Shown here: positions 18,824 through 42,318 of the stretch, one piece after another
Position numbering within the stretch: position 1 is the first letter of the stretch
Layout: each line of letters starts with the position of its first letter
Virus record (IMG/VR): IMGVR_UViG_3300028840_006907
Location: 320,001-384,000 of that record
Strand: one strand, 5' to 3'
DNA: 64,000 bases
DNA from: a virus
The notes under the pieces: model-generated
Database searches by the model: none
What the model was told of the DNA's origin: nothing
The model's input: only the letters and a program-made list of their open reading frames with translations
Program-made: the position numbers and the translations under genes

Positions 18824-19252
18824 ATGAGCAATATGAAAATTGCAATAGCTTCTTATATGCGTTATACAGTTGTTTTAGCCAACTTGAAAGAGCATTTCAA
18901 AAGAGAACTCGATCTAGCTGGCCTATTTGATAAAGACTCCGATTATAATGGAATGATAGGTAACGCTGTTATGGACCTGTGTAAAGTCTTCTCTGATCAG
19001 GGCCATAGCGGGTTCTCCGCGAACTGGGTTCTGAAATTGTTCGATACTCTTGGTCACTATAAAACGTTGACTCCTATTACAGATAATCCGAAAGAGTGGA
19101 TGAAGGTTACAGATGGCCTCGGTAGAGATGAACCGGTCTGGCAGAGTAATCGAAATCCTTCCCTTTTTTCTAATAATGGTGGAAAGAGTTATTATGATGT
19201 AGACGATAAGAAGCGTAAGAAGATCCGCTCTAAAAAGTTTAAAAAGAAATAA
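18824..19252 (+). CDS. hypothetical protein
   Basis: Track start 18788 is TTG; in-frame ATG at 18824 has an AGAGGT RBS. Confidence 0.4.
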   Translation: MSNMKIAIASYMRYTVVLANLKEHFKRELDLAGLFDKDSDYNGMIGNAVMDLCKVFSDQGHSGFSANWVLKLFDTLGHYKTLTPITDNPKEWMKVTDGLGRDEPVWQSNRNPSLFSNNGGKSYYDVDDKKRKKIRSKKFKKK

Positions 19253-21408: not shown

Positions 21409-23859
21409 TTATATTTTATTATTTTTTCTAAGGAGAGCTATCTGACGTTTAATCCATCGAGGAGTTTCTTCAAGAGTTTCAGCCATTTGATTTCTTGTCA
21501 TCTTTCCACGATTATCTATTATGAATTGGAGCTTTTCTTCAGTCTTTCTATCTTTGGTACAACCAATAGGGTTTTTTGTAGATAATGTACCTTTTTTTTG
21601 TAAGAATTTTATTTGAGATTTAACCCATCGCTCTGTTTCATTGAGAGCTTTAGATAATTCTTTTTTAGTTTTATTTTTATAATTAGTGATTATATACTGC
21701 GTTTTTTCAGGGGTTCTTCTACATTTTGTTGAGAATTTAGAAATCTCTTTTAAATAGGTAAATTTCTCAGTGGGTTGTTTAATATTTATATCTTCAATAC
21801 ATTTTGAATTATATATTTCTTTTTCTCTTTTAGGATAAGGTTTAGTAACATAATTTTTTAATTTGTTAATTTTTTTCTTATCTCTTTTATTTTCACCTAT
21901 TAATAAGACATATTTATGTTTTCTTTCAGTAATAAATTTTTGAGCTTCAGATAATATATTTTTATTCCAATTATTCCATTGAACTTTAATTCCTTCTGGT
22001 ATGGTACTCATATTTTTAAAACCATTTTCTTTAAACCATTCCTTTTGAGAAATAATCCCTTGATTTTTACACCATTTTTTAAATGCTGATGTACGTTTTA
22101 GAGATTGAGCTGAAAAAGTCCTATTATTTTTAATGGAAGGATGTTTATATAAGTATGAACTTCCAAAGTTATTTCCTAGATAATCAAATCCACAAGCTTG
22201 GTAAATAGTCCCTATTTCAAGAGCTTTAGGATCAGCATAACCTATGAAAGCTCTTTTAGAAGTGTTATTAGCCATCCAATTACAAGCAAACCTTATAAGA
22301 CGGCTACCCAGGTTTTTCGGGGTCCATGAGGCAGTGGCACCTCTTTGAATTAAAGCTTCATATTTGGGAGTATCTTTACCTAGAATTTTGGAATATGCTG
22401 TGGGTTCATTTATAAATAATACTCCTGCGAGAATATTATTGTATCTGGCTGTGAAGCACCATTTTGGTATTACTCCAATTGTTCCTAACCATTCATATTT
22501 TTTTATAAATTGGACCATTTCATTATTAAATTTTTCTTCAGATAATGTAAAAGAAGTAGCTTTTAAAGAAGAGTGATTGAAATCGATATTTTTTTTATCT
22601 TCATCAATCCATTGAAGTTTCTTTTTATATTGGTGGCATATAAAAGTGGTCTTGTTTTTACTGTTAATTTTATTTTTTATTAAATCAATGATAATACCTT
22701 TTCGGATAGCTTCTTTTACATCATCAGACCAAAATCTAATCAAATTGGGTATATTTTTATTTTGGATTTCATCATTCTTAATATTTTCTTTTATTTTTAA
22801 TGCCCTTGGAGACGTATCATTTTCTCTTATTTCTTTACCATGCCAATAATTACCATCATATTGTACCCATAAGTTATAGCGAGGCATATAGAAATCAATT
22901 ACATGTTTAATAATTGGGTGCATAACTTGATGTTCTACAAAAGGATCAAATACAATAAGATAATTAAAAAAGTTATTTTCTTCATCTGAGGATGAGAAGG
23001 AATTATTTAGTTTAACTGTTTTATATGTTTTTTCTTTTATTTCAACATTCTGTTGGGGATTTTCAACGCCATATCTTTCAATATTAGTTTCAGTGATTTT
23101 TTTCTTAATCTCTGGAGATTGGAATACATTGTCAACCCCGTATCTTGATTGTACTGTTACTTTAACTTTTCTTTTTACTTCTTTAGATTGAGAGGGGTAT
23201 TCTACTCCTCGTTTTTCAATATTAGATTGACGGGATTTTTCTTTCATTGAGTTTAGTTGAGTAGAATATTCTACGCCATAACGTTTTTTAATAGTTTCGT
23301 TATTATGTTTAACTATATCTTCATTTATTTTATCTCGATTCCTTCTTAATCCTAGTTTAATAGCTCTTTCTCGGATGGCTTTCCAGGTCCTGTTTTCAAA
23401 GTAGAGCATAATAAATTCCATAGAATTCTTTTCATATACTTCTTTTAAAAGATCATCTTCTTTGGGTGACCAGAAGTCTTCCCTAGCAGGAGCGCTTTTA
23501 CCACCATCAATCATTTCTTGTTTAATTATTTCAGGATTTCTTTGAAGGTTTAATTTTTGAGCATTACTTCGGATGCTTTGCCATGATCGATTCTTGAATT
23601 TAGAAAGGATAAATTCTTTTGAATTATTTTCATATATATTTTTAAGAATATTTATCTCTTCGGTTGTCCAGGAATCTTTTCTTGGTCCTCTTTTTTTACG
23701 GTCTTCATTTATAAGGTCAGGATTACGGTGAAGATTTAGCTTACGTGCTTTTCTACAGATGGTTGTCCAAGATTTATTTAATTTGGAGATAATAAATTCT
23801 TTTGAATTATTTTTATATATTTCTTTTAATAAATTTTCTTCTTCTATTTTCCAACGCAT
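21409..23859 (-). CDS. multidomain hypothetical protein: N-terminal triplicated helical repeats, YGV(E/D)N repeats, possible Vsr/PD-(D/E)xK-like nuclease core
   Basis: Start set at second Met (MRWKIEE) with AAGAGG RBS; track start is 23916. Three ~50-aa repeats (SWTTEEINILKNIYENNSKEFI...); three RYGVxNxxQ repeats; VIDFYMPRYNLWVQYDGNYWHG resembles a Vsr/DUF559-type core. Only minus-strand gene in the plus-strand block. Confidence 0.5.
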   Translation of the reverse strand: MRWKIEEENLLKEIYKNNSKEFIISKLNKSWTTICRKARKLNLHRNPDLINEDRKKRGPRKDSWTTEEINILKNIYENNSKEFILSKFKNRSWQSIRSNAQKLNLQRNPEIIKQEMIDGGKSAPAREDFWSPKEDDLLKEVYEKNSMEFIMLYFENRTWKAIRERAIKLGLRRNRDKINEDIVKHNNETIKKRYGVEYSTQLNSMKEKSRQSNIEKRGVEYPSQSKEVKRKVKVTVQSRYGVDNVFQSPEIKKKITETNIERYGVENPQQNVEIKEKTYKTVKLNNSFSSSDEENNFFNYLIVFDPFVEHQVMHPIIKHVIDFYMPRYNLWVQYDGNYWHGKEIRENDTSPRALKIKENIKNDEIQNKNIPNLIRFWSDDVKEAIRKGIIIDLIKNKINSKNKTTFICHQYKKKLQWIDEDKKNIDFNHSSLKATSFTLSEEKFNNEMVQFIKKYEWLGTIGVIPKWCFTARYNNILAGVLFINEPTAYSKILGKDTPKYEALIQRGATASWTPKNLGSRLIRFACNWMANNTSKRAFIGYADPKALEIGTIYQACGFDYLGNNFGSSYLYKHPSIKNNRTFSAQSLKRTSAFKKWCKNQGIISQKEWFKENGFKNMSTIPEGIKVQWNNWNKNILSEAQKFITERKHKYVLLIGENKRDKKKINKLKNYVTKPYPKREKEIYNSKCIEDINIKQPTEKFTYLKEISKFSTKCRRTPEKTQYIITNYKNKTKKELSKALNETERWVKSQIKFLQKKGTLSTKNPIGCTKDRKTEEKLQFIIDNRGKMTRNQMAETLEETPRWIKRQIALLRKNNKI

Positions 23860-23962
23860 ATGAGTACCTCTTTTTAGTATATTACTTATTATAACAGGTA
23901 TTAGAGTTATTGTCAATATTTCATTTAATAAATATGGAATTCATTAATTTATAGGGAAAAAG

Positions 23963-27695: not shown

Positions 27696-27941
27696 ATGGC
27701 TTTTGAAGTTGAATATTTTGAATTGTCACCGAGCGATGCAACAAATGAGTATGTCTCATTAGGGGGTGTTCCAGTGGTTGCTGATAATGTTGCAATAGAT
27801 CTTGTGGGAGGTACAGCCCAAGCATTAACGAATGATTTTGCCGTTGATGGAACAAGAATTGTATGGGATAGTACATCCTATAATTTAAATGGACTGCTTG
27901 CTACTGGTGACAAAATGAGAGCTATCTACGATAGATCCTAA
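27696..27941 (+). CDS. small hypothetical protein upstream of fibre genes
   Basis: 81 aa; AAGGAG RBS; immediately precedes the fibre gene pair. Confidence 0.4.
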   Translation: MAFEVEYFELSPSDATNEYVSLGGVPVVADNVAIDLVGGTAQALTNDFAVDGTRIVWDSTSYNLNGLLATGDKMRAIYDRS

Positions 27942-27978: not shown

Positions 27979-30900
27979 ATGGCTCAAGTAGAAAGAAAAT
28001 GGATCCAGGACCAAGCAATTTCCAATGAAAAAGTAGATCCCACTGATATTTATACCATTACAGGTTTAAGAGTTGATGAAACCAATGCCATTGGGAGAGT
28101 AGGAATAGGTTTATCTAGCCCTTTGGATGCTCTTCATATTCAACGAACTGATTCTTCTTCTGGAATGATGCTGGATCTTAGTGATGGTACAAATGGTAAA
28201 CTTTATAAGATATATTCAGGAGCTAATGGTTTACTGAATTTTACTGATGCTACAGATGGGGGCATATTCACCTATGGTGAATCAGGTTCGATAGGTCGAG
28301 TTGGTATCAATACCGCATCTATCCAAGATCACCTTCATGTAAGTTCCCCTTTAACAGATGCTGCGTTAAGACTTGATTTAGATGATGGACTCAATGGTCG
28401 AGCTTATCGTCTTGTCTCAGATACAGATGGAGCTTTTAGGATAATTGATGTTGATGCGGGTAATGTAAATAGACTTCAGATTGCTAATACAGGAACTTTA
28501 ACTGTCTCAGGTGATGCAACTTTTGATAGTAATTTTCAAATTAATGGTACTGTTACAGTTATTAATACTGAAATTGTCATTGCAGATCAATTAGAAATAA
28601 ATCAAACTGACAATCAGGCAGCATTGATAGTAAGTCAAGATACAGGTGGTGCTACAGCCACTGTAATGAGAATTGAAAATGCTGGCACAGGCCATGCTTT
28701 AACCGTAGATTCTGGTAATGTAGGTATTGGTACTTTAACTCCGGCTGCTCCTCTTCATGTTCAAGGTGATATAATTACTGCCAATGGGTATAATATCGGA
28801 GACACCACTCATAGAATTGGTACTCTTTGGATGGCTTCTACTGTAGATTATTTGACTGACCTTAATTTTAGTTCAGGTGGAACAAATGTTACTTTTGCAA
28901 CCGGTGGAAATGTCGGGATAGGTTCTGGTACTCCTACCCAGGCCCTGGATGTGGTTGGAACTATAGAAAATACAGGTGATATCATAACAACTGGTTCTTA
29001 TCCTTCCGGTTTAATAAGAGGAGCTTATTTAACGATAACTACTGGAAATTCGACTTTCCAAGGAAGAGTGGGAATTGGTGTTACAAGTCCGTCTTATCCT
29101 CTTCATGTTGGTGGAGACATTTATTCCAATACAGGTAATATTGTAGCCACTGCTGGAACTGTGACAGGTGGATCTGGTTTAATAGCTACTACAGGTGGTG
29201 TTATAGCCTCTGCTGGAAATATAACAGCGACCTTGGGTGATCTCATCGCTTCTGCGGGTTCTGTAACTGCTAATACAAATGTAACTGCTACGAATGGAAA
29301 TATAGTTGCTTCTAATGGAAATATTTCTGCTACGAATGGTACAGTAACAGGAGGCACCGGTTTAATAGCTACCACAGGGGGTGTGACCGCTACGAATGGA
29401 AATATAGTTGCTTCTAATGGAAATATTTCTGCTACGAATGGTACAGTAACAGGAGGCACCGGTTTAATAGCTACCACAGGGGGTGTGACCGCTTTAGCTG
29501 GTAATATCTCTGCTTCGGCTGGTTCTGTAACTGCTAATACTAATATAACAGCCACGAATGGTAATATTGTTGCTTCTAATGGAAATATTTCTGCTACAAA
29601 TGGTACGGTAACAGGAGGCACCGGTTTAATAGCGACTACAGGTGGTGTAACCGCTACGGCTGGAAATATCACTGCTTCAAATGGTAGTTTTGTCGCTCCA
29701 AATGGAATTGTAAGTGTAGGTTTTGGCGTTATAGCAGCAGGGGGTGATATATTTGCCCAAACGGGTAAAGTAGGAATTTCAACCAGTTCTATTGCAGGAG
29801 GTTATGTATTACATGTTCAAGGAAACGCTTATTGTTCAGGTCAAGTAGATACAAATACTTTGGATGTAGGTAGTGGCAGTTTTACTGTAAGTGCAATTGG
29901 TGCAACAAATATCGGACCAGGCTGGTTAACTTTCGGTCAACATATGTCTGGTGGAGGACAGATTGGATCTGCTTCTACCGTAAATATTGTTTCAACCAGT
30001 GGTGCAACTATGTCAGGAGGTTCAGGCGCTGTCTCAATTACTACTAATAACAGTGGTACGCCAAGTGCGATTAATGTGACCTCTGGAAATAACACCGGAT
30101 CAGGAGTTGGTGGAGCACTCAATCTGAATGCAGGTGATTCGGGAGGAGCTGGTACAGGTGGTGCAGTAACTATTACTGGAGGAACGGCTTCAGGTGGTGG
30201 ATCTACAGGAGGAGACATTTTGCTGCTTCCTGGAAGTGCTGTCTCAAATGGGCGCGTTGAGGTAGGCACAGGTGCCTCTTCGAAAAATTTATGGGTTTCA
30301 GGTAGTGTAACTATAGAAGGAGCTAATTCTGCTTTTGCTCTTTCGATTAATAATACGAATTATGTAGGAGCTTATTGTGCAATAGCAGGAGCATCAACGG
30401 TAGCTGGCTGGTTTGAAAATAGTGGTTCAGATTCAACATCTATGTTTGTGCAACAATTAAATACTGGTAAAGGGCTTTTCGCTACTGGATTAGGATTAAA
30501 TTCTTTTGCAGGATTTTTCCAAAGTACGGGCTATACAACTCTTAGGTCAGAAGTGAGTGGTACTGGAGGTGGTGATTATGCTGTACATGCAATATGTACA
30601 AATGCTGGATCGAGTGCCACTTCAGCAGCAGTTTTTGCTCAAAATTGGGGAGGTGGAAAAGCTATTCAGGCAACCGCAGGAACTGGAACTACTATTCAAG
30701 GGTCAAACACTAATGGTACTGCTATTTATGGGTCTCAAGCAGGAACCTCTGGTAGAGCAGGACGTTTTAGGTGTAATGCTGGATCTTATGCATACAATGC
30801 TGTTGAGGTAGAAGTGACTTCAGGTACAGGAGCTTCAAAAGGGATCTTAGTTAATTATACCGGTTCTGGTAATGCTATAGAAGTAAACGGTGGTAGTGGC

Positions 30901-31665
30901 TATGGTATTGAAGCATACCAAAGTGCAGGAACAGTTTATCATGGGACTAATTCAGGAACTACAGGTAGAGCTGCTTTATTCGAAACTTCTAATACCAGTT
31001 TTAATGGTACTATAGTTGAAATAAGTAGTAATACAACATCACTGAATAATAATTGTTTAGTTTGCAATCATTCAGGTAGTGGTACAGGTCTTACTGTTAA
31101 CTCCAATGCAGCGGGTGCTAGTTTTGGTATTAACAGCTTTATGCCGGGTGTCTCTGGAACTGGAAGAGCTATTAATGGCTACTGTGTTTCAGCATCAGGA
31201 TTTGCCGGTTATTTTACTGGGAATGTACATATTGCGGGTACTCTTTCTAAAACTGCGGGTGGTTTTAAAATTGATCATCCAATTGAACCTGAGACAAAGA
31301 ATTTAGTTCATAGTTTTGTTGAAAGCCCTGAGATGAGGAATGTCTATTATGGACGGGCTGTGACTCATGATGGGACAGCATCTATAGGTCTTCCGGATTG
31401 GTGGGTTACATTAAATGGGTCTAATAAGGAAGAGTATAATTATAGTTTAACTACTATTGGTAAATACAGCAGATTATTTATTAGTAAAGAAATAGAGAAC
31501 AATCAATTTGAAGTCTCTTCATTGGATGGAGACTGTACTTTTTCCTGGACTATCTCAGCCATTCGCCATGATACTTATGCTGAGAGCAACAGAATACAAG
31601 TAGAAAAGAACAAAACACAAGAAGAAATAGATGATTATAAAAAAGAGCATGGCATTTCTGTCTAA
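27979..31665 (+). CDS. glycine/threonine-rich fibre-like structural protein (tail-fibre-like), paralog 1
   Basis: 1228 aa; AAAGGAG RBS; long G/T/S/N-rich beta-rich repeats; N-terminal ~300 aa closely match 31696-35172. Confidence 0.6.
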   Translation: MAQVERKWIQDQAISNEKVDPTDIYTITGLRVDETNAIGRVGIGLSSPLDALHIQRTDSSSGMMLDLSDGTNGKLYKIYSGANGLLNFTDATDGGIFTYGESGSIGRVGINTASIQDHLHVSSPLTDAALRLDLDDGLNGRAYRLVSDTDGAFRIIDVDAGNVNRLQIANTGTLTVSGDATFDSNFQINGTVTVINTEIVIADQLEINQTDNQAALIVSQDTGGATATVMRIENAGTGHALTVDSGNVGIGTLTPAAPLHVQGDIITANGYNIGDTTHRIGTLWMASTVDYLTDLNFSSGGTNVTFATGGNVGIGSGTPTQALDVVGTIENTGDIITTGSYPSGLIRGAYLTITTGNSTFQGRVGIGVTSPSYPLHVGGDIYSNTGNIVATAGTVTGGSGLIATTGGVIASAGNITATLGDLIASAGSVTANTNVTATNGNIVASNGNISATNGTVTGGTGLIATTGGVTATNGNIVASNGNISATNGTVTGGTGLIATTGGVTALAGNISASAGSVTANTNITATNGNIVASNGNISATNGTVTGGTGLIATTGGVTATAGNITASNGSFVAPNGIVSVGFGVIAAGGDIFAQTGKVGISTSSIAGGYVLHVQGNAYCSGQVDTNTLDVGSGSFTVSAIGATNIGPGWLTFGQHMSGGGQIGSASTVNIVSTSGATMSGGSGAVSITTNNSGTPSAINVTSGNNTGSGVGGALNLNAGDSGGAGTGGAVTITGGTASGGGSTGGDILLLPGSAVSNGRVEVGTGASSKNLWVSGSVTIEGANSAFALSINNTNYVGAYCAIAGASTVAGWFENSGSDSTSMFVQQLNTGKGLFATGLGLNSFAGFFQSTGYTTLRSEVSGTGGGDYAVHAICTNAGSSATSAAVFAQNWGGGKAIQATAGTGTTIQGSNTNGTAIYGSQAGTSGRAGRFRCNAGSYAYNAVEVEVTSGTGASKGILVNYTGSGNAIEVNGGSGYGIEAYQSAGTVYHGTNSGTTGRAALFETSNTSFNGTIVEISSNTTSLNNNCLVCNHSGSGTGLTVNSNAAGASFGINSFMPGVSGTGRAINGYCVSASGFAGYFTGNVHIAGTLSKTAGGFKIDHPIEPETKNLVHSFVESPEMRNVYYGRAVTHDGTASIGLPDWWVTLNGSNKEEYNYSLTTIGKYSRLFISKEIENNQFEVSSLDGDCTFSWTISAIRHDTYAESNRIQVEKNKTQEEIDDYKKEHGISV
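29287..29490 (+). repeat. perfect 102-bp tandem duplication inside fibre CDS, plus a third imperfect copy to ~29650
   Basis: Unit GCTACGAATGGAAATATAGTTGC...GGGGGTGTGACC repeated identically at 29287 and 29389; in-frame, 34 aa (ATNGNIVASNGNISATNGTVTGGTGLIATTGGVT). Confidence 0.8.
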
Positions 31666-31695
31666 ATTTCTTTTGTAAAAAGGAGTTAAATACTC

Positions 31696-34600
31696 ATGTC
31701 ACAAGTGTTGAGAAAATGGATAGCTGATCAAGCCGTTAATAATGATAAAATAGATCCTACCGATACCTATACAATTACAGGATTGAGAGTCGATGAGACG
31801 AATGCCGTAGGAAGAATAGCAATGGGATTAAGCAGTCCATTAGATGCTATTCATATTAGGAGGACTGATACTTCTGCTGGTATAATAATGGATCTTGATG
31901 ATGGAGGTTCAGGACGATCTTATCAAATAACTTCAGATCAAAGTGGCTTTTTAAATGTAAGAGATAGAGATCTCGATGTTGATCGATTGACTTTATATTC
32001 TGTTCCTTCAGTAGGGCGCTTAGGAGTAAATAGTTATTCTCCTCAAGACACTATTCATGCACGATCAACTGTACTTGCTTCAGCTTTACGATTAGATACC
32101 GATGATGGATTTGCAGGAAGATCTTATCGTGTCGTTTCTGATACCGATGGTGCTTTTAAGATTATCGATGTTGATGCAGGTAATGTGAATAGATTTCAAA
32201 TTGCTAATACAGGTACTTTGACAGTTTCAGGTGATGCAACTTTCGATAGTAATTTTCAGATTAACGGTACTGTTACTGTAATAAATACAGAAATAGTAGT
32301 AGCTGATCAGCTCGAAATTAATCAAACAGATGATCAGGCTGCGTTAATAGTAAGTCAAGATAATGCAGGTGCCACGGCTACTGTAATGAGAATCGAAAAT
32401 GCAGGTTCGGGTCATGCTTTAACCGTAGATTCTGGTAATGTAGGTATTGGTACTTTAACTCCGGCTGCTCCTCTTCATGTTCAAGGAGATATAATTACTG
32501 CTAATGGGTATAATATCGGAGACACCACTCATCGAATTGGTACTCTCTGGATGGCTTCCACTGTAGATTATCAAACAAATTTAAATTTTTATTCTGGTGG
32601 AAATAATGTTACCTTTGCCACGGGTGGTAATGTTGGTATAGGTTCGACTATTCCTACTCAGGCCCTGGATGTGGTTGGAAATATTTTAGGTAGTGCAAAT
32701 ATACAGGGTGCAACATTAACTATAAATACAGGACCTTCCCAGTTTACTGGAAATGTTGGTATCGGGATTTCTCCTTCATATCCTCTTCATGTAAGTGGTG
32801 CTATTGTAGGAACTACGACAGTAACGGGTGGTACAGGTATTATTGCTTCAACTGGTAATATTACAGCTTCTACAGGAAATATAATAGCAACCTTGGGAGA
32901 TATGACAGCGGTTGCAGGGGATATAGCTGCTCCATTAGGTACAATTACGGCATCGAGTTTAAATATAACCTCAGGGCCAACTTCACTTGCTGGCCCTTTT
33001 TCAGTTACGACCCCAGCTACAACTGATACTTATATGGAAATTAGTAGAGCTGGTTTTCCTGCATTCAAAGTCCAGACTTATTATGTTGCTTCACCTACTA
33101 CAAGCAGAATTGTGGAAATGGGTGCTACTGACGGTGGACAGACACATATTACTTATGGTAGTGGCGGTCCAACACGTCGAGCCATTTCGATTTTAAGTGC
33201 TGGTGCTACTTTAGGTTATGTAGGTATAGGTACTCAAACCCCCGCACAAAGACTTCAAGTTCAAGGTAATATTCAAGTAGAAGGTGATTTTTTAGGAAAG
33301 CCTACTGCAAGTGCTTCGAATATAGGTAGTTCTACTCGTCGGATTGGTACTATTTATATGGATTCGACAGTTAACACAGGTTCTACGGGTTTAACAATAG
33401 CGCCTAGTGGGAGCCCGATGTTATATGTCACTCCAAGTGGAGTAGGTATAGGAACAGATTTTCCTGTCAATTTATTAGATGTGAGAAGTTCTGGTGCTGT
33501 GGCTGCTCAGCTTCAGGCTGGTTCTGGTGGAAACAATGCATTTTTTAGAGTGAGAGCAAATGGTATTGGTGGAGATGCATCTATAGTAGTGGATTCAGGG
33601 GATGCTGCTAATGCTTCTACAGTAGATTTTTATTTTGCTGGTAATCCTGGTGGTTCGATAGAATATAAGGGTTGGAATATGAATATAAACAACTCTATAG
33701 GTTATACGAGCGTGAATATTGGGAGTCAACCAGTATTAAAAGTGGACTCACCAGGAGTCGATGTTAGTACATCAGGTAATTTAACAATGAATCTTCGAGG
33801 TGGTCCAACTAATAGCATAAATTTAGACTTTGGTAATACCTTTTTAGCTTATGCAGGTATTCATCAACCTCATTTTCTTGATACTACGGTATATAATAAT
33901 ATTGGCAAGATCATTTTAACGCCCAGTACTAACATGCTTTATGCAACAAGTACTGGTGTTGGTATATTTCAAGCGGATGTCCCTAGCGCTTTTCTACATG
34001 TAAAGAGTACTGTAGGGGCTGCTGATGCTAAGATTGAATCGACAGTAGGAAATGCTCAATTAGATCTTACTCCTCAATTTAATGCTAATGCTATTCTAAA
34101 TATGACTGCATTTTCCGGTATTCAGCAGACAGGTGCTACAGACATGACCATGTTTAATAATATCGGAAGAATTGTTTTAACTCCAAGTTCTAATATGCTT
34201 TATGCTACAAGTACAGGAGTTGGAATTTTTCAAGCTGATGTTCCTACCGCTTTTTTACATGTTAAGAGTACAGTTGGACTAGCTGATGCGAAAATTGAGT
34301 CCACAGTAGGAAATGCTAAATTAACATTTACTCCGCAATTTAGTTCTAATGCAATTATCGAATTTGGAGCATTTGCAGGTATTCAACAAACTGGTTTTAC
34401 TGATACTACTGTGTTTAATAATGCAGGTCAGATTGTTTTGTCTCCTAGTTTAGGAGTGTTGCGTGCTTCAAGTGCAGGTGTAGGTCTTACTTATGGTGAT
34501 ACTTTTACACCAGGTTATTTGTTGCATATGTATAGAAGTTCTGGATCTACTGAAGCAAAAATTGAATCAGATGATAATAATGCCCGATTAAGGCTTGATT

Positions 34601-35172
34601 GTGGTAATAATCAGGAGAGTGAAATATTTTTTCAAGAACAGGGTAATAATGAAGCGTCTATTCAATATAATGCCACTAATCAAAGATTATACATTCGTGG
34701 TTCAGATGGCCTCAGATTTGGGACATATCCATCAACCAACACAATGAATTTATATAGTAGTGGTCTTATCCATTATTCAGCATACGAAGCTCATCCTTAT
34801 ACAGGTGGTGGAGATGGTTATCATTTCGATCTATGTGTTGATAGTGCAGGAGATATGACTACAAATAGAGTTCAGAATATTGAAGTTTATGGGACTCTTG
34901 GTTCAGGAACTAGTGGTTTAATAGATTTAAGTGGTCGCAGTAGTCAGATTAACAATAATACTTTTATTGCTTTTGACTTATCTGTTAAACATCTTGGTTT
35001 TGGAGATGTCTGGTATCCACCAGGTTATGATTCGTCTGGTACTATCAAACATTATGATGCACGTTTTCAAATTCCAAGTGGCCCTGCTGTTATTCTTATT
35101 AATCGTGGAGCTGATATGGATGGTGCTAATCCTTATAGGTTACTCGTTTGGTTTCGTACTGTAAGTCATTAA
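31696..35172 (+). CDS. fibre-like structural protein, paralog 2
   Basis: 1158 aa; AAAGGAG RBS; N-terminus MSQVLRKWIADQAVNNDKIDPTDTYTITGLRVDETNAVGR matches paralog 1; divergent C-terminal two-thirds. Confidence 0.6.
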   Translation: MSQVLRKWIADQAVNNDKIDPTDTYTITGLRVDETNAVGRIAMGLSSPLDAIHIRRTDTSAGIIMDLDDGGSGRSYQITSDQSGFLNVRDRDLDVDRLTLYSVPSVGRLGVNSYSPQDTIHARSTVLASALRLDTDDGFAGRSYRVVSDTDGAFKIIDVDAGNVNRFQIANTGTLTVSGDATFDSNFQINGTVTVINTEIVVADQLEINQTDDQAALIVSQDNAGATATVMRIENAGSGHALTVDSGNVGIGTLTPAAPLHVQGDIITANGYNIGDTTHRIGTLWMASTVDYQTNLNFYSGGNNVTFATGGNVGIGSTIPTQALDVVGNILGSANIQGATLTINTGPSQFTGNVGIGISPSYPLHVSGAIVGTTTVTGGTGIIASTGNITASTGNIIATLGDMTAVAGDIAAPLGTITASSLNITSGPTSLAGPFSVTTPATTDTYMEISRAGFPAFKVQTYYVASPTTSRIVEMGATDGGQTHITYGSGGPTRRAISILSAGATLGYVGIGTQTPAQRLQVQGNIQVEGDFLGKPTASASNIGSSTRRIGTIYMDSTVNTGSTGLTIAPSGSPMLYVTPSGVGIGTDFPVNLLDVRSSGAVAAQLQAGSGGNNAFFRVRANGIGGDASIVVDSGDAANASTVDFYFAGNPGGSIEYKGWNMNINNSIGYTSVNIGSQPVLKVDSPGVDVSTSGNLTMNLRGGPTNSINLDFGNTFLAYAGIHQPHFLDTTVYNNIGKIILTPSTNMLYATSTGVGIFQADVPSAFLHVKSTVGAADAKIESTVGNAQLDLTPQFNANAILNMTAFSGIQQTGATDMTMFNNIGRIVLTPSSNMLYATSTGVGIFQADVPTAFLHVKSTVGLADAKIESTVGNAKLTFTPQFSSNAIIEFGAFAGIQQTGFTDTTVFNNAGQIVLSPSLGVLRASSAGVGLTYGDTFTPGYLLHMYRSSGSTEAKIESDDNNARLRLDCGNNQESEIFFQEQGNNEASIQYNATNQRLYIRGSDGLRFGTYPSTNTMNLYSSGLIHYSAYEAHPYTGGGDGYHFDLCVDSAGDMTTNRVQNIEVYGTLGSGTSGLIDLSGRSSQINNNTFIAFDLSVKHLGFGDVWYPPGYDSSGTIKHYDARFQIPSGPAVILINRGADMDGANPYRLLVWFRTVSH
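33895..34416 (+). repeat. imperfect in-frame tandem repeat (2 x ~261 bp) within fibre paralog 2
   Basis: Two ~87-aa units starting NNIGKIILTPSTNMLYATSTGVGIFQADVP and NNIGRIVLTPSSNMLYATSTGVGIFQADVP, roughly 80% nt identity. Confidence 0.5.
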
Positions 35173-35250
35173 TAATTTAATAATCATTTAATATTTAACA
35201 TATAGGTAAATATCTAAATTTAAATTTAAATAAAATAAGTGAGGTTTTAT

Positions 35251-35553
35251 ATGTCTGGTGATCAAAGAGAACAAATACCACCTCCAACAGTGGTTGATGG
35301 CCCAGGAGTGGCAGAAGAGAAGCAAGAAACAGTTAACAAGACAGTTGATTCCAAAGTAAATTTGAATGTGGATCCAATTACTGCAATCAATTTAAATGCT
35401 TTGGAATATGATAGAAAGATAAGAGAGGCTGAGGCAGTTGTAGCCCAGTTAAAGAGTGAGAGAGCTGCTTACATTTATGATGCAAATGTAAAGAATCTTG
35501 TGGCTCAAGCTCAGGCTCAACAAAATCAACCTCAAAACCCAGTACAAAATTAA
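35251..35553 (+). CDS. hypothetical Q/A-rich protein
   Basis: ATG at 35251 preceded by GTGAGG RBS (track start 35239). Confidence 0.4.
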   Translation: MSGDQREQIPPPTVVDGPGVAEEKQETVNKTVDSKVNLNVDPITAINLNALEYDRKIREAEAVVAQLKSERAAYIYDANVKNLVAQAQAQQNQPQNPVQN

Positions 35554-35555
35554 TT

Positions 35556-35834
35556 ATGAATCCAATTGTAAATTATATTGATCTCAAGACACCTTTTGGA
35601 ACAAATATTCCGTTAGTTCAAAAAAGGTTATCAAAAAATTCTACGAGGAATTTTAATGATAAGCAGGAATTTATTGATCATATTGATTCGATAAAGCCTT
35701 CTCGAAGAGTTGATACTTATCTTGTGATAAAATGTAGCTGTGAAAAAGAATATGAATATAAAAATAAGGATGAAGTACCTTCTTCTGGTTTAGTTTGTGG
35801 TTGCAAGAGAGTTTTACTCAAATACGGTAACTGA
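35556..35834 (+). CDS. small cysteine-containing hypothetical protein
   Basis: 92 aa with CSC...CGC pairs. Confidence 0.4.
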   Translation: MNPIVNYIDLKTPFGTNIPLVQKRLSKNSTRNFNDKQEFIDHIDSIKPSRRVDTYLVIKCSCEKEYEYKNKDEVPSSGLVCGCKRVLLKYGN

Positions 35835-36008: not shown

Positions 36009-38234
36009 ATGTCTTACATGTTTCGATTGACTGTTGATAGTAGCAAAATAATAGGAACTGATAAAACAGATTTTCCTGTTTTATTTAATGAAAATTGTTC
36101 GAATATACCATCTTCTTTTTGGTCTAATATCACTGATGTAACAGATGGATTAGATGTTCGTTTTTATGATAGTACATCAAAATCAATTGAATATTCAAGA
36201 GAAGTTGTATCAGTTGATGCTACTGGTGAAACTATTGAATCATGGGTACAAATACCTTCTTTAAGTGTTAGTGCAGATACTGATCTTTATTGTGAAGTTG
36301 GAGGTGGTGATCGAACAAATGATACTGATATATGGACTGATTTAGGGGCACTTGGAATTTATCATATGGAAAACACTGCTAGTTCTGTTGATAATGGAAA
36401 AGATGCAACAAATAGTGATGCCACTTCCATAACTGGAAGAATAGGAAGATGTTACGATTTTGACGGTACAAGTAATTATATGGTAATGGATAATTATACC
36501 TTTTTAACTTCTAATCCTTACTATGTTTCTGCCTGGATTAATATGGATAACACTAAAGTAACTGATCCAAGTTGGGAGGATCAATTCGCTACCATATTTA
36601 ATAGATTAGAGAAGTGTAATGAATCTGTATCAGGAAGAGGATCATGCTCATTTGATTTTGGTGTTGATAGAGATGCTAAAGTAGGCTTTTTTGTTGGAGA
36701 TAATTTAACTAATGTATGTTCTAATGCAGGTTATCATCAAGATAGGTATACCACAGATAGCACTATTAATATGAATACATGGTATCATGTTGGTGTCTGG
36801 ATTGAAGATATTTCACAAACAACACCTAACCGTATTGTGAAATTTTATATAGATGGTCAATTGGTCTCTTCTACAGAGAATATTAGTGCCGCTGTTGACT
36901 ATTCGAATACTCATAGACCAGGTGAACAAACTCGAATTGGTAGTGGATATAGAATAGGGGGAGCACACTATCAAAATTTTAATGGTCGAATAGATGAATT
37001 AAGAATATTTAATGGTTCAGATTTTGATTCTAGTTGGATTGAGACAAGTTATAATACTCAAAGTGATCCAGCTTCATTTCTTTCTGGTAGTACCCTTCCA
37101 TTTCAATTTAATGTGAATGTCATATCAGATTATGTCCCTGGTTCAGATAAAACGAATTTTCCAGTAATGTTTACTCAAGATTGTAGCAATGTACCCTCCG
37201 AGTTATGGGATCATGTTTCGGATACGACAAATGGATTAGATATTAGATTTTATAGTGATTCTGGAAAGAGTGTTGAATATGATCGTGAAATTGTTCTTTA
37301 TGATCGGACTGGTCAAAAAGTAGAAGCTTATATAAAAGTACCTACATTAAATGCTTCTTCAAATACAACTTTTGTATGTGAAATAGGGGATGCTACAAAA
37401 GCTAATGATCAAATTTGGGCCGATTCTAGCGCTAGAGGTATATACCATCTTCAAAAGAGTTTAATGGATTATTCTCCAAGAGGACTGGATGGTACAAATA
37501 ATGGTTCTTTAGACTCAACAGGAAAAATAAATGACGCTTATTCATTTAATGATAGCCATGTCCAAATTTATGAGAGTACTGCTTATAATGATACTGTAGC
37601 AATAAGTGCATGGATAAATCTTAATTCTTATCCGCCAAATAATTCTTTAACAGGTTCTCCGAACTATGGCCGTGCAAGTATTTACAATACGGCAGTTATC
37701 TGTTCAACCACTTATAGAGGTTGGATTCCCATGAGTTTTAATATTACACCAACTGGTGAACTTGATTTTTGGGTTAGGACAAGTGTTAGTTGTGGTGGTG
37801 GAGCAACTACATGGGGCTATCGAACGGATAGTACACATATCAGTCTTTATAATTGGCATCATGTCATGGCTGTTATAAATAATTATACAGATGGTGCAAC
37901 AAGATCTCTGACATTTTATGTAGATGGTCAATCGGTAGCTGCTACAAAAGTTTATACTGCAGAATTTGCCCCGGTATACGCTGGTGGTATTCAAACAAGA
38001 ATTGGGTCCCAGTATAAAACTTCAGGTGTTAATGAGTGGCGAATAGATGGTATTATTGATGAATTGCGGATTCATGATGGTTGGGAGCCTCCTGATACTG
38101 ATTGGATAGAGACTGATTATAATAATCAAAATGATCCGAATACGTTTATTATTTGCGGGGATGTTCCAACTCCTCCTTCTACTTCTGTACCTGTAATGCG
38201 AAGAAGACAAAAAGTGAACAGTAGTGGTTTTTAA
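36009..38234 (+). CDS. surface/adhesin-like protein with two tandem DUF2341-like + LamG-like modules
   Basis: 741 aa; module 1 TDKTDFPVLF...GLDVRFYDSTSKSIEYSREV and GRIDELRIFNG; module 2 SDKTNFPVMF...GLDIRFYSDSGKSVEYDREI and GIIDELRIHDG. Confidence 0.6.
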   Translation: MSYMFRLTVDSSKIIGTDKTDFPVLFNENCSNIPSSFWSNITDVTDGLDVRFYDSTSKSIEYSREVVSVDATGETIESWVQIPSLSVSADTDLYCEVGGGDRTNDTDIWTDLGALGIYHMENTASSVDNGKDATNSDATSITGRIGRCYDFDGTSNYMVMDNYTFLTSNPYYVSAWINMDNTKVTDPSWEDQFATIFNRLEKCNESVSGRGSCSFDFGVDRDAKVGFFVGDNLTNVCSNAGYHQDRYTTDSTINMNTWYHVGVWIEDISQTTPNRIVKFYIDGQLVSSTENISAAVDYSNTHRPGEQTRIGSGYRIGGAHYQNFNGRIDELRIFNGSDFDSSWIETSYNTQSDPASFLSGSTLPFQFNVNVISDYVPGSDKTNFPVMFTQDCSNVPSELWDHVSDTTNGLDIRFYSDSGKSVEYDREIVLYDRTGQKVEAYIKVPTLNASSNTTFVCEIGDATKANDQIWADSSARGIYHLQKSLMDYSPRGLDGTNNGSLDSTGKINDAYSFNDSHVQIYESTAYNDTVAISAWINLNSYPPNNSLTGSPNYGRASIYNTAVICSTTYRGWIPMSFNITPTGELDFWVRTSVSCGGGATTWGYRTDSTHISLYNWHHVMAVINNYTDGATRSLTFYVDGQSVAATKVYTAEFAPVYAGGIQTRIGSQYKTSGVNEWRIDGIIDELRIHDGWEPPDTDWIETDYNNQNDPNTFIICGDVPTPPSTSVPVMRRRQKVNSSGF

Positions 38235-38400: not shown

Positions 38401-41400
38401 ATGCCTGAAAGAGTCCTAAGAAAATTTGGTGTGGCAGCATCAGTTGATTTTACCCTATTCGAAACAGATGGAATTAACTTTAAAACTGATGCAACGCATG
38501 CCTCCGGTGACACAAAAATAAGAAAAGACACGAGTGCTGAAGTAAATACAACAAATGGATTTACAGATCAAACTACATCATATGCAATAGCATTTACCTC
38601 TGCTGAACTGTCTGCTAAGAGAATATTTGTTGGAATTGTTGATCAAGGTACAAAAACTTGGCTCGATGATTATTTAATGATTGAGACTTACGGACATCCT
38701 CAAGCAATGCACCCCTTTGATCTTGGTGCTGATTTAACTGATTATAATGAGACCTGGAAATTTAAACAAATCGATATCCAGAATGATTCAGGATCTGCAT
38801 TTAGAGCACATTCAACGGGTAGTAGTGGCCATGGTATCGATGCCTCTGGATATGATTTAGGTCACGGTATATATGCCAAAGGTGGTAATACGGATGGTGT
38901 TGGAATTTTTGCTAAAGGTGGTGAAACCGGGCATGGCTTTTATGGAGAAGGAGGTGCTGATTATGGAGATGGTATTCATGGTGAGGCTGTTGGTATCGGT
39001 ACAGGATCTCGTAAGGGTATAGTAGGTATCGGAGAAGGTGGAAACGCTGGGATTTATGCTGAAGGTGGTAGTACTGGTCATGGGTTTAGTTGTGAGGGTG
39101 GTACCGGTGGTGCTGGTATATCTTGTCTTGGAGGTACAAATGGCCATGGTTTTCTGACTTCAGGTACTGGTACTGGAGAAGGTATTTATGCTGTTGGAGA
39201 TATAGGGATTTTTGCTCAAGGTAATGGAAATCCAGGTCATGGTATGAGCCTATTTGGAGCTTCTAATGGCCATGGATTACAGATCTCTGGATCTGGTTCT
39301 AATTTTAATGGAATCAATGTAGTATCTGCAGTGGGTGTAGGTATTGAAGTAAATGCTGGTACAAATCAAAATGCTATTGAGATTTATGGTAATGGTACCG
39401 GAAACGGTGTTAATATAGTTGGTGGTGGTACATCAGGTTCAGCTATGAATCTTACTGCAACGTCTGGTTATGCTATAGATGCTTCAGGAGGTGGAACTTT
39501 TGCTGCTGTTCATCTACAAGGTGGTACAGGAAATCCTGGTTTAAAAGTTCTCGGAGATGGTACAGGTGAAGGTCTCTATGCTGAAGGAGGAGCAACAGCT
39601 AATGGCATTATTGCTAAAGCGGGTTCTACCTCTGGAACAGGTCTTGTTTGTCAATCCCCTACTGCTGGAGATGGTGTAGCAATGTATGGAAAGAGTACTG
39701 GCAAAGGTCTTAGAATTACTGCTGATCAAGAAGCAGTGGCAATTTCTGCCGGTACCGGTATTGGAATTAATGTTATAGCTGGTACTCAAGGTATCAGTTT
39801 AACGGGTCTTGCAAATGAAGGATTAAAGATATTAGGTGCAACACATGGAATTAGTACAGCATCATTTGGAACTGGACATGGCATAGATGCTTCTGGTGGT
39901 GGTGCTAATGCAGCGGTTCTTCTAACAGGTGGAACAGGTCAGGCTGGTTTGAAATTGGTAGGTACGGGCACAGTTGGGCTGGATACGGCTGAAATCGGAA
40001 CGCCTCCAGCTATCTTTGATGGTACTGCAAGTCCAAGCATATATGCGATGCTTACGGCAATGTCTGATGCAAGTGGTGGTTCTGATTTCACTGCTAGTAT
40101 CGATAGTTTAGTTGCTATTTCTAGTCAGGTTGGAGGAATGTCCACAGATGTAAATGTAGTCTCTATTGATGGTCAGGCTACAAGTGGTAACAATGCAACT
40201 CTTAATTTGAAACAATTAAATATCGTTAATAATTCAGGATCAGCCATTGTCGCTCACTCAACTGGTTCTGATGGTCATGGTTTGGATGCTTCAGGTAATA
40301 ACAATGGTAGCGGAATATATGCCTATGGTGGTAATAATAGTAGCGGAAGCGGAATATATGCTAATGGTGGCTTACAGGGAACCGGTTTCCATATAATTTC
40401 TTCAGGAGATAATGCCTTACATATTGAAACTAGCGGATCAGGTTCTAATGGAATCTATGCTAAAGGATTTGGTTCTGGGCATGGCGTGAACTTTGTTGGA
40501 GGAGCTTCATCTGGGTCAATCGGTCTCAGAGCTTCAGGTGAGACAGCGGGTATTTACGCAAGAGGAGAAAATTCTACGAGTGGTGACGGTATAAAAGCTG
40601 AATCTGTAGAACATGGGCATGGTATAAATGCCCTTGGTGGTGAAGGTGGTGCTCCTCCAAGCGGTGACGGTATTCATGCTGAAGCCCGTCATGGAGACCA
40701 TTATGGTATTTACGCGGGTGGTTTTGGCTCTGGAAGTGGCATGTATAGTAAAGGTGGTTTATGGGGTCATGGAGTTGAGTTTAGAGGTGGGGATAATTCT
40801 GGTGCAGGTTTACTTCTTGCAGTAGATGGAACCAATTCTAATGGCTTGAGTATAACGGGTTCTGATAATAGTTCAGGTGTCTATATTGAAGGTGGTACAT
40901 CAGGACATGGAGTTGAAATAATAGGAGGATCAACATCTGGAAGTGGTATCTATACACGTGCTCTAAATAACGGAATGGGTATCTATGCAATAGGTGGTAA
41001 TTCAGCAGGTGATGGTATAAATGCTCAGTCCCCGGTAGCAGGTAACGGAATTTCAGCAACTGGTTCTCTTATTACGGGTAAAGGAATAGTCAGTACGGGT
41101 GGTATAGCAATGCAACTAGTAGGATTGACTGGAAATGCGCTTGATATGACAACAACTACTGGACATGGTATTCAAATAGATGCTCATGGGTCTGGGAAGA
41201 GTGGTATGTATATACAATCTACTTCATCCTATGGTATGACCGTTGTCGGAACCACTGGAGTAAGATTCCAAGGATTATCAGGTCCAGGTATTGATGTTAA
41301 TGCTATAGGTGGTAATGGTTTAAATATCATAAGTACTGACAATGATGGAGTACATATTGAAGCTGGTGGAAGTAATCCTGGTTTCTACAGTCAAGGATCG

Positions 41401-42318
41401 GGATCACAAGCAGGTATGGAAATTCGTGGTGGTAGTTCTGATGGAAGAGGTTTGTTGGTCCAAGGTGGTGGAAATAGTGAAGGTGCTCGGATTTTAGCTG
41501 GTGGCTCTTTCGATGCCGGTCTCCATATTATGGGCGGTGGGCATGGTTTACAAATTGAAGCTCAAGCCGGTAATTATAATGGTGTTAGAATTCAAGGAAA
41601 TGGGACTGCAAGTGGCCTATATGTTGCTGCTCAATTTGCTGGTTCTGGTAGTGGTGTGGAAATCAGAGGAGCTAGCAATACTGGTGGCCATGGTGTCAAT
41701 ATAACAGGTTTTGGAGGACAAGGGTTAATTGCTACAGGTGATTTGGGTGGTATGAATATAACATGTAGTGGATCAACAGGTGACGGTTTTTATGCTGAGG
41801 GTGGAGATCATGGCCACGGAATCCATGCTGTCGGTGGTGCTGGTGCTGCTCCTCCTCCAAGTGGCCACGGTATTCTGGCTGAAGCCGTCCACGGTGATTA
41901 TAATGGTATTTGTGCCATTGGTCATGATTCCAGTGCTGGTATCGCTGCTATTGGTGGATCTACTGGTCATGGTATTGAGGCAATCGGTGGAGATACAACA
42001 GGTGATGGTATTAATGCTTATGCTCAGACAGGTGACGGCGCTGGAATGCGCTTAAGAGGAGTTGGTACAGGCCATGATCTTGATGCTACTGAAGTCCTTG
42101 GTGGTGGAGGAGGAGGTACTCTAAATGCCTTAACTCTGGATACTGTAGTTGATGGCACCACATTAGAATATGCCTTTATGTTAATGATGGCACGAGTAAA
42201 TGGTAAATATCTTGTTAATGATCCAACGGGAGGAGATATAAGATTCTTCAGACGTGATAATACGACAGAATTAACTCGGGTTCATGTGGATACCGCAGGT
42301 AGAACAAGAACATTCTAA
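38401..42318 (+). CDS. giant glycine-rich repeat protein with recurring G-H-G motifs, predicted beta-solenoid fibre
   Basis: 1305 aa; AAGGAG RBS; dozens of ~12-14-aa degenerate repeats (TGHGFYGEGG, SGHGIDASG, GHGVEFRGG); larger duplicated segments around 38.95, 40.64 and 41.82 kb. Confidence 0.55.
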   Translation: MPERVLRKFGVAASVDFTLFETDGINFKTDATHASGDTKIRKDTSAEVNTTNGFTDQTTSYAIAFTSAELSAKRIFVGIVDQGTKTWLDDYLMIETYGHPQAMHPFDLGADLTDYNETWKFKQIDIQNDSGSAFRAHSTGSSGHGIDASGYDLGHGIYAKGGNTDGVGIFAKGGETGHGFYGEGGADYGDGIHGEAVGIGTGSRKGIVGIGEGGNAGIYAEGGSTGHGFSCEGGTGGAGISCLGGTNGHGFLTSGTGTGEGIYAVGDIGIFAQGNGNPGHGMSLFGASNGHGLQISGSGSNFNGINVVSAVGVGIEVNAGTNQNAIEIYGNGTGNGVNIVGGGTSGSAMNLTATSGYAIDASGGGTFAAVHLQGGTGNPGLKVLGDGTGEGLYAEGGATANGIIAKAGSTSGTGLVCQSPTAGDGVAMYGKSTGKGLRITADQEAVAISAGTGIGINVIAGTQGISLTGLANEGLKILGATHGISTASFGTGHGIDASGGGANAAVLLTGGTGQAGLKLVGTGTVGLDTAEIGTPPAIFDGTASPSIYAMLTAMSDASGGSDFTASIDSLVAISSQVGGMSTDVNVVSIDGQATSGNNATLNLKQLNIVNNSGSAIVAHSTGSDGHGLDASGNNNGSGIYAYGGNNSSGSGIYANGGLQGTGFHIISSGDNALHIETSGSGSNGIYAKGFGSGHGVNFVGGASSGSIGLRASGETAGIYARGENSTSGDGIKAESVEHGHGINALGGEGGAPPSGDGIHAEARHGDHYGIYAGGFGSGSGMYSKGGLWGHGVEFRGGDNSGAGLLLAVDGTNSNGLSITGSDNSSGVYIEGGTSGHGVEIIGGSTSGSGIYTRALNNGMGIYAIGGNSAGDGINAQSPVAGNGISATGSLITGKGIVSTGGIAMQLVGLTGNALDMTTTTGHGIQIDAHGSGKSGMYIQSTSSYGMTVVGTTGVRFQGLSGPGIDVNAIGGNGLNIISTDNDGVHIEAGGSNPGFYSQGSGSQAGMEIRGGSSDGRGLLVQGGGNSEGARILAGGSFDAGLHIMGGGHGLQIEAQAGNYNGVRIQGNGTASGLYVAAQFAGSGSGVEIRGASNTGGHGVNITGFGGQGLIATGDLGGMNITCSGSTGDGFYAEGGDHGHGIHAVGGAGAAPPPSGHGILAEAVHGDYNGICAIGHDSSAGIAAIGGSTGHGIEAIGGDTTGDGINAYAQTGDGAGMRLRGVGTGHDLDATEVLGGGGGGTLNALTLDTVVDGTTLEYAFMLMMARVNGKYLVNDPTGGDIRFFRRDNTTELTRVHVDTAGRTRTF

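Follow-up and report, generated by a model that had tools for sequence, protein, structure and literature searches.

What history can make two adjacent giant genes of one phage nearly identical over a short internal stretch and, at silent sites, as different as unrelated sequences on either side of it? The question is raised by a 64,000-nucleotide (nt) stretch of viral DNA (the window; positions 320,001 to 384,000 of IMG/VR record IMGVR_UViG_3300028840_006907), in which two large open reading frames (ORFs) are direct neighbours on the + strand. The first, p1, occupies 27979-31665 and encodes 1228 amino acids (aa), the second, p2, occupies 31696-35172 and encodes 1158 aa, and an AAAGGAG ribosome-binding site (RBS) stands 5' of both. 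An earlier note, made from the letters alone, had placed two giant genes here, and both ORFs lie at exactly the coordinates it gave. We consider it probable, at roughly 80%, that p1 and p2 are tandem paralogous tail-fibre (receptor-binding) genes of a huge myovirus-like phage, that the module they share is a mosaic, and that a 159-nt block within it owes its identity to gene conversion. The parts of the two genes that carry the argument are the following.

27979-31665, + strand: probable fibre gene 1 (p1), in which the shared N-terminal module is followed by a shaft of Gly/Thr-rich repeats and by a C-terminal tip of a widespread family.
31696-35172, + strand: probable fibre gene 2 (p2), in which the shared N-terminal module leads into a different shaft (87-aa repeats) and a C-terminal tip that is nearly an orphan.
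27979-28383 in p1 and 31696-32103 in p2, + strand: divergent part of the shared module, codons 1-135, apparently of different origin in each gene.
28384-28965 in p1 and 32104-32685 in p2, + strand: homogenised part of the shared module, codons 136-329, which groups by genome and not by orthologue.
28693-28851, + strand: gene 1 copy of the putative recent conversion tract, codons 239-291, with 5/159 differences, all silent.
32413-32571, + strand: gene 2 copy of the same putative tract, on the same evidence.

A protein-guided codon alignment of p1 and p2, from which all regional nucleotide identities were taken, shows that the genes are colinear over about 330 codons and that identity along them is clearly non-uniform. 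It amounts to 75.4% over codons 1-329 and rises from 62.5% in codons 1-135 to 84.4% in codons 136-329, with a value of 96.9% for the block; the lowest similarity within the module is found in codons 59-135 (40% aa identity). By blastn, the first 982 nt of the genes align at 76.4% identity, and by blastp, aa 1-451 of p1 align with aa 1-426 of p2 at 67.7% identity. The earlier note had described a colinear region of some 300 codons at 85-90% nucleotide identity followed by complete divergence. The colinearity was confirmed, whereas the identity figure is too high for the module as a whole and holds for its distal two thirds only; the genes do diverge beyond the module, but gradually, with weak similarity persisting past codon 330 to about codon 450.

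The block (28693-28851 against 32413-32571) turned out just as the note had counted it, with exactly five differences in 159 positions. It lies in frame, and all five differences are synonymous. Both edges are sharp: at the 5' edge a 74-nt perfect run comes right after mismatches at 28683-28692, and at the 3' edge dense mismatches, some of them non-synonymous, resume from 28852. No third copy of the block is present within the 64-kb window.

The silent sites set the block apart from its surroundings. By the Nei-Gojobori method, the proportion of differing synonymous sites (pS) in codons 141-238 is 0.63, equivalent to a saturated synonymous divergence (dS) of about 1.4, and the proportion of differing non-synonymous sites (pN) is 0.05. 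The block has a pS of 0.125 (dS 0.14) and a pN of 0, so that dS is approximately ten-fold lower there than in a flank of nearly equal protein conservation. Where both genes specify the same amino acid by a degenerate codon, the codons agree at 46 of 51 positions in the block, compared with 110 of 196 outside it (Fisher p = 2.9e-6). When codons were permuted and the position of the scanned segment was left free, 29 of 200,000 permutations matched the best 51-codon segment, and 156 of 200,000 matched the longest run, which comprises 24 identical codons.

A codon-bias artefact was ruled out by a codon-usage null in which codons are drawn independently from the genes' own usage. This null predicts 24.5 identical codons in the block, where 46 are observed, a number that was reached in none of 200,000 simulations (0/200,000). 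Codons 1-135 (40 observed, 36.9 expected) and codons 136-238 (51 of 91 observed, 44.7 expected) are both at chance level under the same null. Outside the block, the silent sites of p1 and p2 are as different as unrelated draws; inside, they are nearly identical.

Related phages provide a second line of evidence. When metagenomes were scanned with an alignment of the shared module, 21 loci were returned, which together with the contig of a database protein, P0001 (L001), make 22 related loci; IMG/VR scans with the N-terminal module returned no relatives, and the 7.2-kb region had no match in a nucleotide search of GenBank phages. Of these loci, only L003 (contig Ga0307377_10020387) has a tandem fibre pair like that of the window phage, and a single fibre gene is found in L005, L006, L007, L008 and L014. 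The first L003 gene (L003a) has a p1-type C-terminus with 63% identity, and the sequence joining the two genes reads TCTAAATTTCTTTTGTAAAAAGGAGT in the window and TCTAAATTTCTTTTATAAAAGGAGT in L003, the stop-to-start junction common to both being TCTAAATTTCTTTT[G/A]TAAAA(A)GGAGT. This homologous junction argues for a single ancestral tandem duplication. The tandem pair in L003, its p1-type C-terminus and the homologous junction together imply that the duplication predates the split of the window and L003 phages, an age taken from one related contig on which the second gene (L003b) ends at codon 257. The junction and the small genes that frame the locus are as follows.

27696-27941, + strand: gene for an 81-aa protein at the 5' edge of the fibre locus, syntenic in relatives by tblastn.
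31666-31695, + strand: junction between p1 and p2 with the RBS of gene 2, with a homologous junction in L003.
35239-35834, + strand: two small conserved genes (104 and 92 aa), which close the fibre locus in related phages.

A homologue of the 81-aa gene lies directly 5' of the fibre N-terminus in all 22 of the 22 related loci (L001, L003-L023; 48-79% identity by tblastn), and homologues of the 104- and 92-aa genes lie directly 3' of the single fibre gene in L005, L006, L007, L008 and L014 (tblastn). The 81-aa protein, which has no family in Pfam or PHROG, is the most constant neighbour of the fibre gene and a candidate adaptor or assembly factor.

Trees built from different parts of the module disagree. 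Neighbour-joining (NJ) bootstraps of codons 59-135 group p1 with L011 (100%) and p2 with L003a and L003b (93%), and p1 with p2 in 0%; p1 also groups in this segment, more loosely, with the L007, L012 and L014 lineages. For codons 136-256, p1 pairs with p2 and L003a with L003b, both at 100%. Quartet sites switch in the same manner, with 40 sites for (p1,L011)|(p2,L003b) in codons 59-135 when L011 is included, and with within-genome grouping favoured by 27:3:3 in codons 136-238 and by 19:0:0 in codons 239-256. The switch in trees and quartets indicates a breakpoint near codon 135 (about nt 28380). The recombination-breakpoint comparison across relatives that the earlier note had proposed thus yields incongruent trees, with 100% bootstrap support on either side of this point, and the conserved anchor it described is indeed a shared module but itself a mosaic, in which p1 and p2 derive codons 59-135 from different lineages.

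The paralogues of L003 offer a parallel. L003a and L003b differ at silent sites throughout (pS 0.33-0.46), and their nucleotide identity peaks at codons about 140-190 and from about 230 onwards, the same sub-segments as in p1 and p2. Concerted evolution of the constant module seems, from these sequences, to be recurrent in the clade, and the 159-nt block would be its latest trace in the window phage.

Pieces of the module were also met in other contexts. P0001 (L001, ENA ERZ2433807 NODE_84255; 543 aa) is the closest database protein to the shared module; its first ~255 aa are a fibre N-terminus and the remainder is an RNA polymerase Rpb2 fragment, at a coverage of 2.3x. It is almost certainly a chimeric assembly, with the break at the start of the block-type motif, and only its first 255 aa were used. 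Within p2 itself, aa 507-621 (33214-33558) are 41-49% identical to aa about 249-375, the anchor region, of the single L008 and L012 fibres. The p2 mid-shaft thus contains a second, diverged copy of the block-type module, which suggests that a fusion or module insertion took place at this motif at an earlier date.

What do the two genes encode? Both proteins are rich in GxVGIGTxxPxxxLHV-type repeats, and phmmer searches of PDB sequences matched p1 aa 130-400 to the Bd2133 beta-helix fibre (8OND, E 2.8e-5) and p2 to the Bdellovibrio fibre 8OL4 (E 1.1e-4). Beyond the shared module, the shafts and the p1 tip contain these features.

29280-29493, + strand: tandem repeat of the p1 shaft with a unit of 102 nt (34 aa), present in 2.1 copies that are 98% identical according to Tandem Repeats Finder (TRF).
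31147-31647, + strand: C-terminal tip domain of p1, aa 1057-1223, of a widespread family without a Pfam model.
33852-34422, + strand: tandem repeat of the p2 shaft with a unit of 261 nt (87 aa), present in 2.2 copies that are 75% identical, seen by TRF and self-blastn.

The family of the p1 tip (aa about 1057-1223) extends over many bacterial phyla and cyanophage tail fibre-like proteins; its profile had no match among PDB sequences. A model-based fold search found the predicted tip fold to resemble the C-terminal domains of phage tail fibres and tailspikes, and the tip model matched a tail fibre-like protein of P-SSM2 in BFVD (Foldseek, E 3.8e-9). For p2, a word-indexed search with the C-terminal 270 aa found no homologue, and an exhaustive search of 1.84 billion representatives gave 14 weak matches, one of which (E 1e-6) covers the tip proper. 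Large lectin-domain proteins (Laminin_G_3) are encoded 3' of the fibre locus, followed by a tail sheath gene at 60157-62958; no baseplate component was identified among the neighbours with Pfam and PHROGs, which matched almost none of them. Homology, modelled fold and synteny support the tail-fibre assignment of p1 well, if indirectly, and that of p2 is supported by paralogy and position. The tips would then presumably bind receptors and the shared module would serve attachment. The two fibres might compete for a single docking site, dock separately or branch from one another, and the fact that codons 59-135 diverge gives a hint that their attachment ends have become somewhat different.

The Peptidase_S74 class of fibres was considered and rejected, since its defining C-terminal domain, PF13884, was not found by Pfam search in p1 or p2; many distant repeat-level matches of the two proteins carry PF13884. 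A further observation concerns the p1 shaft. The ENA contig ERZ27256798 k141_1708087, otherwise identical over 7.5 kb, calls p1 as a protein of 1194 aa, and the 34 aa that are missing equal one shaft repeat unit. Copy number, and with it fibre length, may thus differ within the population, unless one of the assemblies has collapsed the repeat.

Could the block have been kept identical for what its nucleotides do? A functional nucleotide element (an RNA structure, an internal promoter, a recoding signal or a recombinase site) that fixes the silent sites would account for the sharp edges, and the best sigma-70-like match of the region (10/12) does lie inside the block, at 28766-28794. Compared with L003a, however, the block has saturated silent sites (pS 0.68 for p1 and 0.65 for p2) and 70% aa identity, so neither its silent sites nor its protein are conserved and a general nucleotide-level function is unlikely. 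RNA structure was rejected because all but one of 200 dinucleotide shuffles fold better than the block RNA (z = +2.05), and an internal promoter because promoter-like matches are fewer than expected from shuffled sequence (19 vs 26.4); the lack of a third copy in the window also speaks against such an element, which we regard as most improbable. The identity of the block points instead to a property of this genome's gene pair, that is, to DNA exchange and not to sequence constraint. Two specialised systems were rejected as its source. A template/variable pair of a diversity-generating retroelement (DGR) is at odds with the mismatches (T/A, C/T, A/C, T/C and T/C), which are not adenine-specific and are all synonymous, and with the position of the block in the N-terminal third of both genes and not at the C-terminus; no search for a reverse transcriptase was made. 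An invertible-segment system is at odds with direct repeats and with two complete genes on the same strand, each with its own RBS. As the window comes from a metagenomic contig and the p1 shaft repeat number differs between assemblies, one may also think of an assembly artefact, either a local collapse or a strain chimera. This is barely credible, since the exact p1 is present on three long contigs and the exact p2 on five, among them a contig of an independent ENA MEGAHIT assembly whose DNA is identical over 7,477 nt, the two block copies differ at five sites with both frames intact, and a collapse would not make two in-frame copies 3.7 kb apart.

Two other histories would involve the wider phage population. 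The duplication might be fairly recent and have been followed by horizontal replacement of p1 codons about 59-135 and of both distal parts, with the block as the least-diverged remnant. Exchange with other phages does occur, as the grouping of p1 codons 59-135 with L011 indicates, and mosaicism appears rampant in the family, p2 aa 507-621 resembling the anchor of other phages' fibres; yet one date cannot yield both the chance-level 51 of 91 identical codons in codons 136-238 (44.7 expected) and the 46 of 51 in the block, and the tandem pair and its junction are common to L003 even though the paralogues group by genome. We consider this course of events unlikely. A block that entered both paralogues from outside, with a co-infecting related phage as donor, would be consistent with the recombination with other phages that is evident elsewhere in p1 and p2. 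Two independent imports with identical ends (28693, 28851) would be needed, a less parsimonious account than one intragenomic event, and no contig of the metagenome scan holds a closer copy of the block, which makes an outside source highly unlikely. Its existence as an alternative nevertheless counts against the reading that we prefer, and so do several further points. The recent tract is represented by two sequences only, either of which may have been the donor, and the L003 parallel spans only the first 18 codons of the block because L003b stops at the contig end, codon 257. As for the fibre identity, p1 and p2 have no match in Pfam, PHROGs and NCBIfam, the PDB sequence matches are weak and lie within the repetitive motif, the single-sequence AlphaFold2 (AF2) model of the p2 tip reaches a predicted local distance difference test (pLDDT) score of only 33, the tail sheath gene is 25 kb from the fibres with uncharacterised genes between, and the phage is known from metagenome sequence alone.

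With these points weighed, the recent gene conversion proposed in the earlier note is strongly supported by the drop in dS, the lack of conservation against L003a, the RNA folding and the incongruent trees. Its suggestion of receptor-binding fibres with a common anchor and variable tips, which we infer and do not observe, fares well for p1, where homology, fold and synteny agree with it, and less well for p2 with its near-orphan tip; likewise, the structure prediction of the C-terminal domains that it called for gave a fibre- or tailspike-like fold for the p1 tip, and for the p2 tip the low-scoring model described above.

The history that we propose would begin with an old tandem duplication of a single fibre gene between two conserved small-gene markers, giving two fibres. 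Both would have kept the ~330-aa N-terminal module, which is presumed to provide attachment and trimer initiation, and differ in shafts and tips. Codons 1-135 would descend from separate lineages in p1 and p2, codons 136-329 would have been homogenised within the genome, and the ~159-nt tract (codons 239-291) would have been copied between the paralogues recently enough that only five silent differences have arisen. We infer that the two direct repeats, which lie 3.72 kb from each other, underwent gene conversion by non-reciprocal homologous recombination while the phage was replicating or recombining, and conversion would start where constraint at the protein level had preserved enough DNA identity.

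It is conceivable, although we are doubtful, that this homogenisation is selected and not just tolerated, in that both fibres present an identical interface to one shared partner. The idea derives from the finding that identity is raised in the same sub-segments in the window and L003 lineages (codons about 140-190 and 230-290), and that the stretch between them and codons 59-135 are free to diverge. The shared partner could be one docking site or an adaptor such as the 81-aa protein, or the fibres could co-trimerise via this segment. If so, repeated gene conversion would keep a dual-fibre phage assembly-compatible while its tips diversify.

The arrangement of p1 and p2 has counterparts in better-known systems. 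A conserved N-terminal anchor with an exchangeable distal domain has been described for receptor-binding proteins (RBPs) of Klebsiella phages (Latka et al. 2019, PMC6872550) and for the tailspike proteins TSP1-4 of Ackermannviridae (bioRxiv 10.1101/2024.03.21.586117). As in those phages, the RBP genes are adjacent, a conserved N-terminal module is joined to unrelated distal domains, and tips are exchanged between phages; in contrast to them, p1 and p2 are true paralogues over 330 aa, show no sequence relation to those anchors (Pfam, PHROGs), and are predicted to be long beta-helix fibres of 1150-1230 aa, unlike depolymerase tailspikes. The mosaic adhesive trimer (MAT) fibres Bd2133 and Bd1334 of Bdellovibrio bacteriovorus are trimeric beta-helix proteins related to phage adhesins (Caulton et al. 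2024, PMC10769870; 8OND, 8OL4), and MAT paralogues have very similar N-termini (75% identity) and swapped C-terminal tips (PMC10769870). The p1 and p2 proteins resemble them in their GxVGIGTxxPxxxLHV-type repeats, in weak direct sequence matches and in combining similar N-termini with differing tips. The MAT fibres sit on the surface of a bacterium and carry signal peptides. The p1 and p2 proteins, by contrast, are encoded by a phage, have no S74 chaperone domain, and have 135 N-terminal residues that are unrelated to MAT N-termini as far as tested.

The p1 tip is homologous to that of Q58M60 from the T4-like cyanophage P-SSM2 (31% identity); only the last 120-170 aa are common, and beyond them neither the protein nor the genome is related. 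For T-even phages, Tetart and colleagues reportedly described, in 1998, recombination at conserved motifs in the distal tail-fibre genes (gp37/gp38 locus). The likeness lies in short conserved DNA stretches inside fibre genes that act as recombination points and in mosaic adhesins; the difference is that T-even recombination takes place between phages and swaps specificity, whereas here it would take place within one genome, between tandem paralogues, and homogenise the constant part. The G segment of Mu and the C segment of P1 rely on a single constant exon, on inverted repeats and on a site-specific invertase to obtain two host ranges. They too join a constant N-terminal part to two different C-terminal parts, but p1 and p2 are both complete genes, point in the same direction and are each preceded by an RBS of their own. 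In the open-access literature we came across no account that explicitly describes gene conversion within a genome, or concerted evolution, for paralogous tail-fibre genes of phages. Recombination at conserved fibre motifs is classical, and p1 and p2 represent this known process in an unexplored phage group.

The window lies within the JGI contig Ga0180437_10000019 (388,651 bp), and the p2 protein and 7,477 nt of identical DNA are found on an independent ENA contig of 469,021 bp. The tail sheath gene at 60157-62958 encodes 933 aa that are 35% identical both to the Tunturiibacter phage Tunturi_5 sheath and to a protein of LR745208.1, a 485-kb uncultured phage, and the window also contains ThyX, a Mom-like gene and glycosyltransferase genes, with a G+C content of 29-44%. 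The source is a huge, uncultivated contractile-tailed phage without a close relative among GenBank phages.

Several neighbours of the fibre locus deserve mention. Beside the tail sheath region, 57217-58233 (+ strand) encodes a 338-aa, actin-like Volactin (PF25216, E 1.2e-63, full length), the phage relatives of which are found only in the uncultured huge phages LR745208.1 (46% identity) and LR756511.1 (30%). In a 2441-aa ORF at 44801-52126 (+ strand), choice-of-anchor Q domains are the only family match (NCBIfam NF041518, E 5.8e-14); it belongs to the same + strand block as the fibres and the Laminin_G_3 proteins at 36009-38234 and 42383-44431. A 1305-aa protein encoded at 38401-42318 (+ strand) has no family match and is internally highly repetitive. 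It is conserved in the clade, since in L008 and L014 it aligns in multiple overlapping registers to ORFs 3' of the fibre locus, and it could be a further protein of the fibre-like or surface type. 5' of the fibre locus, 18824-19252 (+ strand) encodes a 142-aa product with a Pfam match to Tad3 (PF25185), and 21409-23916 (- strand) an 835-aa protein with DUF7487 and a Mom-family domain (E 1.2e-10). These Tad3-like and Mom-family proteins suggest anti-defence or DNA-modification functions.

Host-recognition fibres set what a phage infects, and almost nothing is known of them for huge phages. Across this clade of huge phages a delimited fibre cassette recurs, which consists of the 81-aa marker, one or two fibre genes and two small genes. 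The junctions near codons 135, 238/239, 291/292 and about 330 form a natural map of swap-tolerant segments that is useful for modular RBP engineering. Current concepts are left unchanged by these findings; a textbook process is seen unusually cleanly in an unexplored phage group, where the locus illustrates how a second fibre may be gained by tandem duplication, how its constant part may be kept similar by gene conversion, and how its tips may be exchanged.

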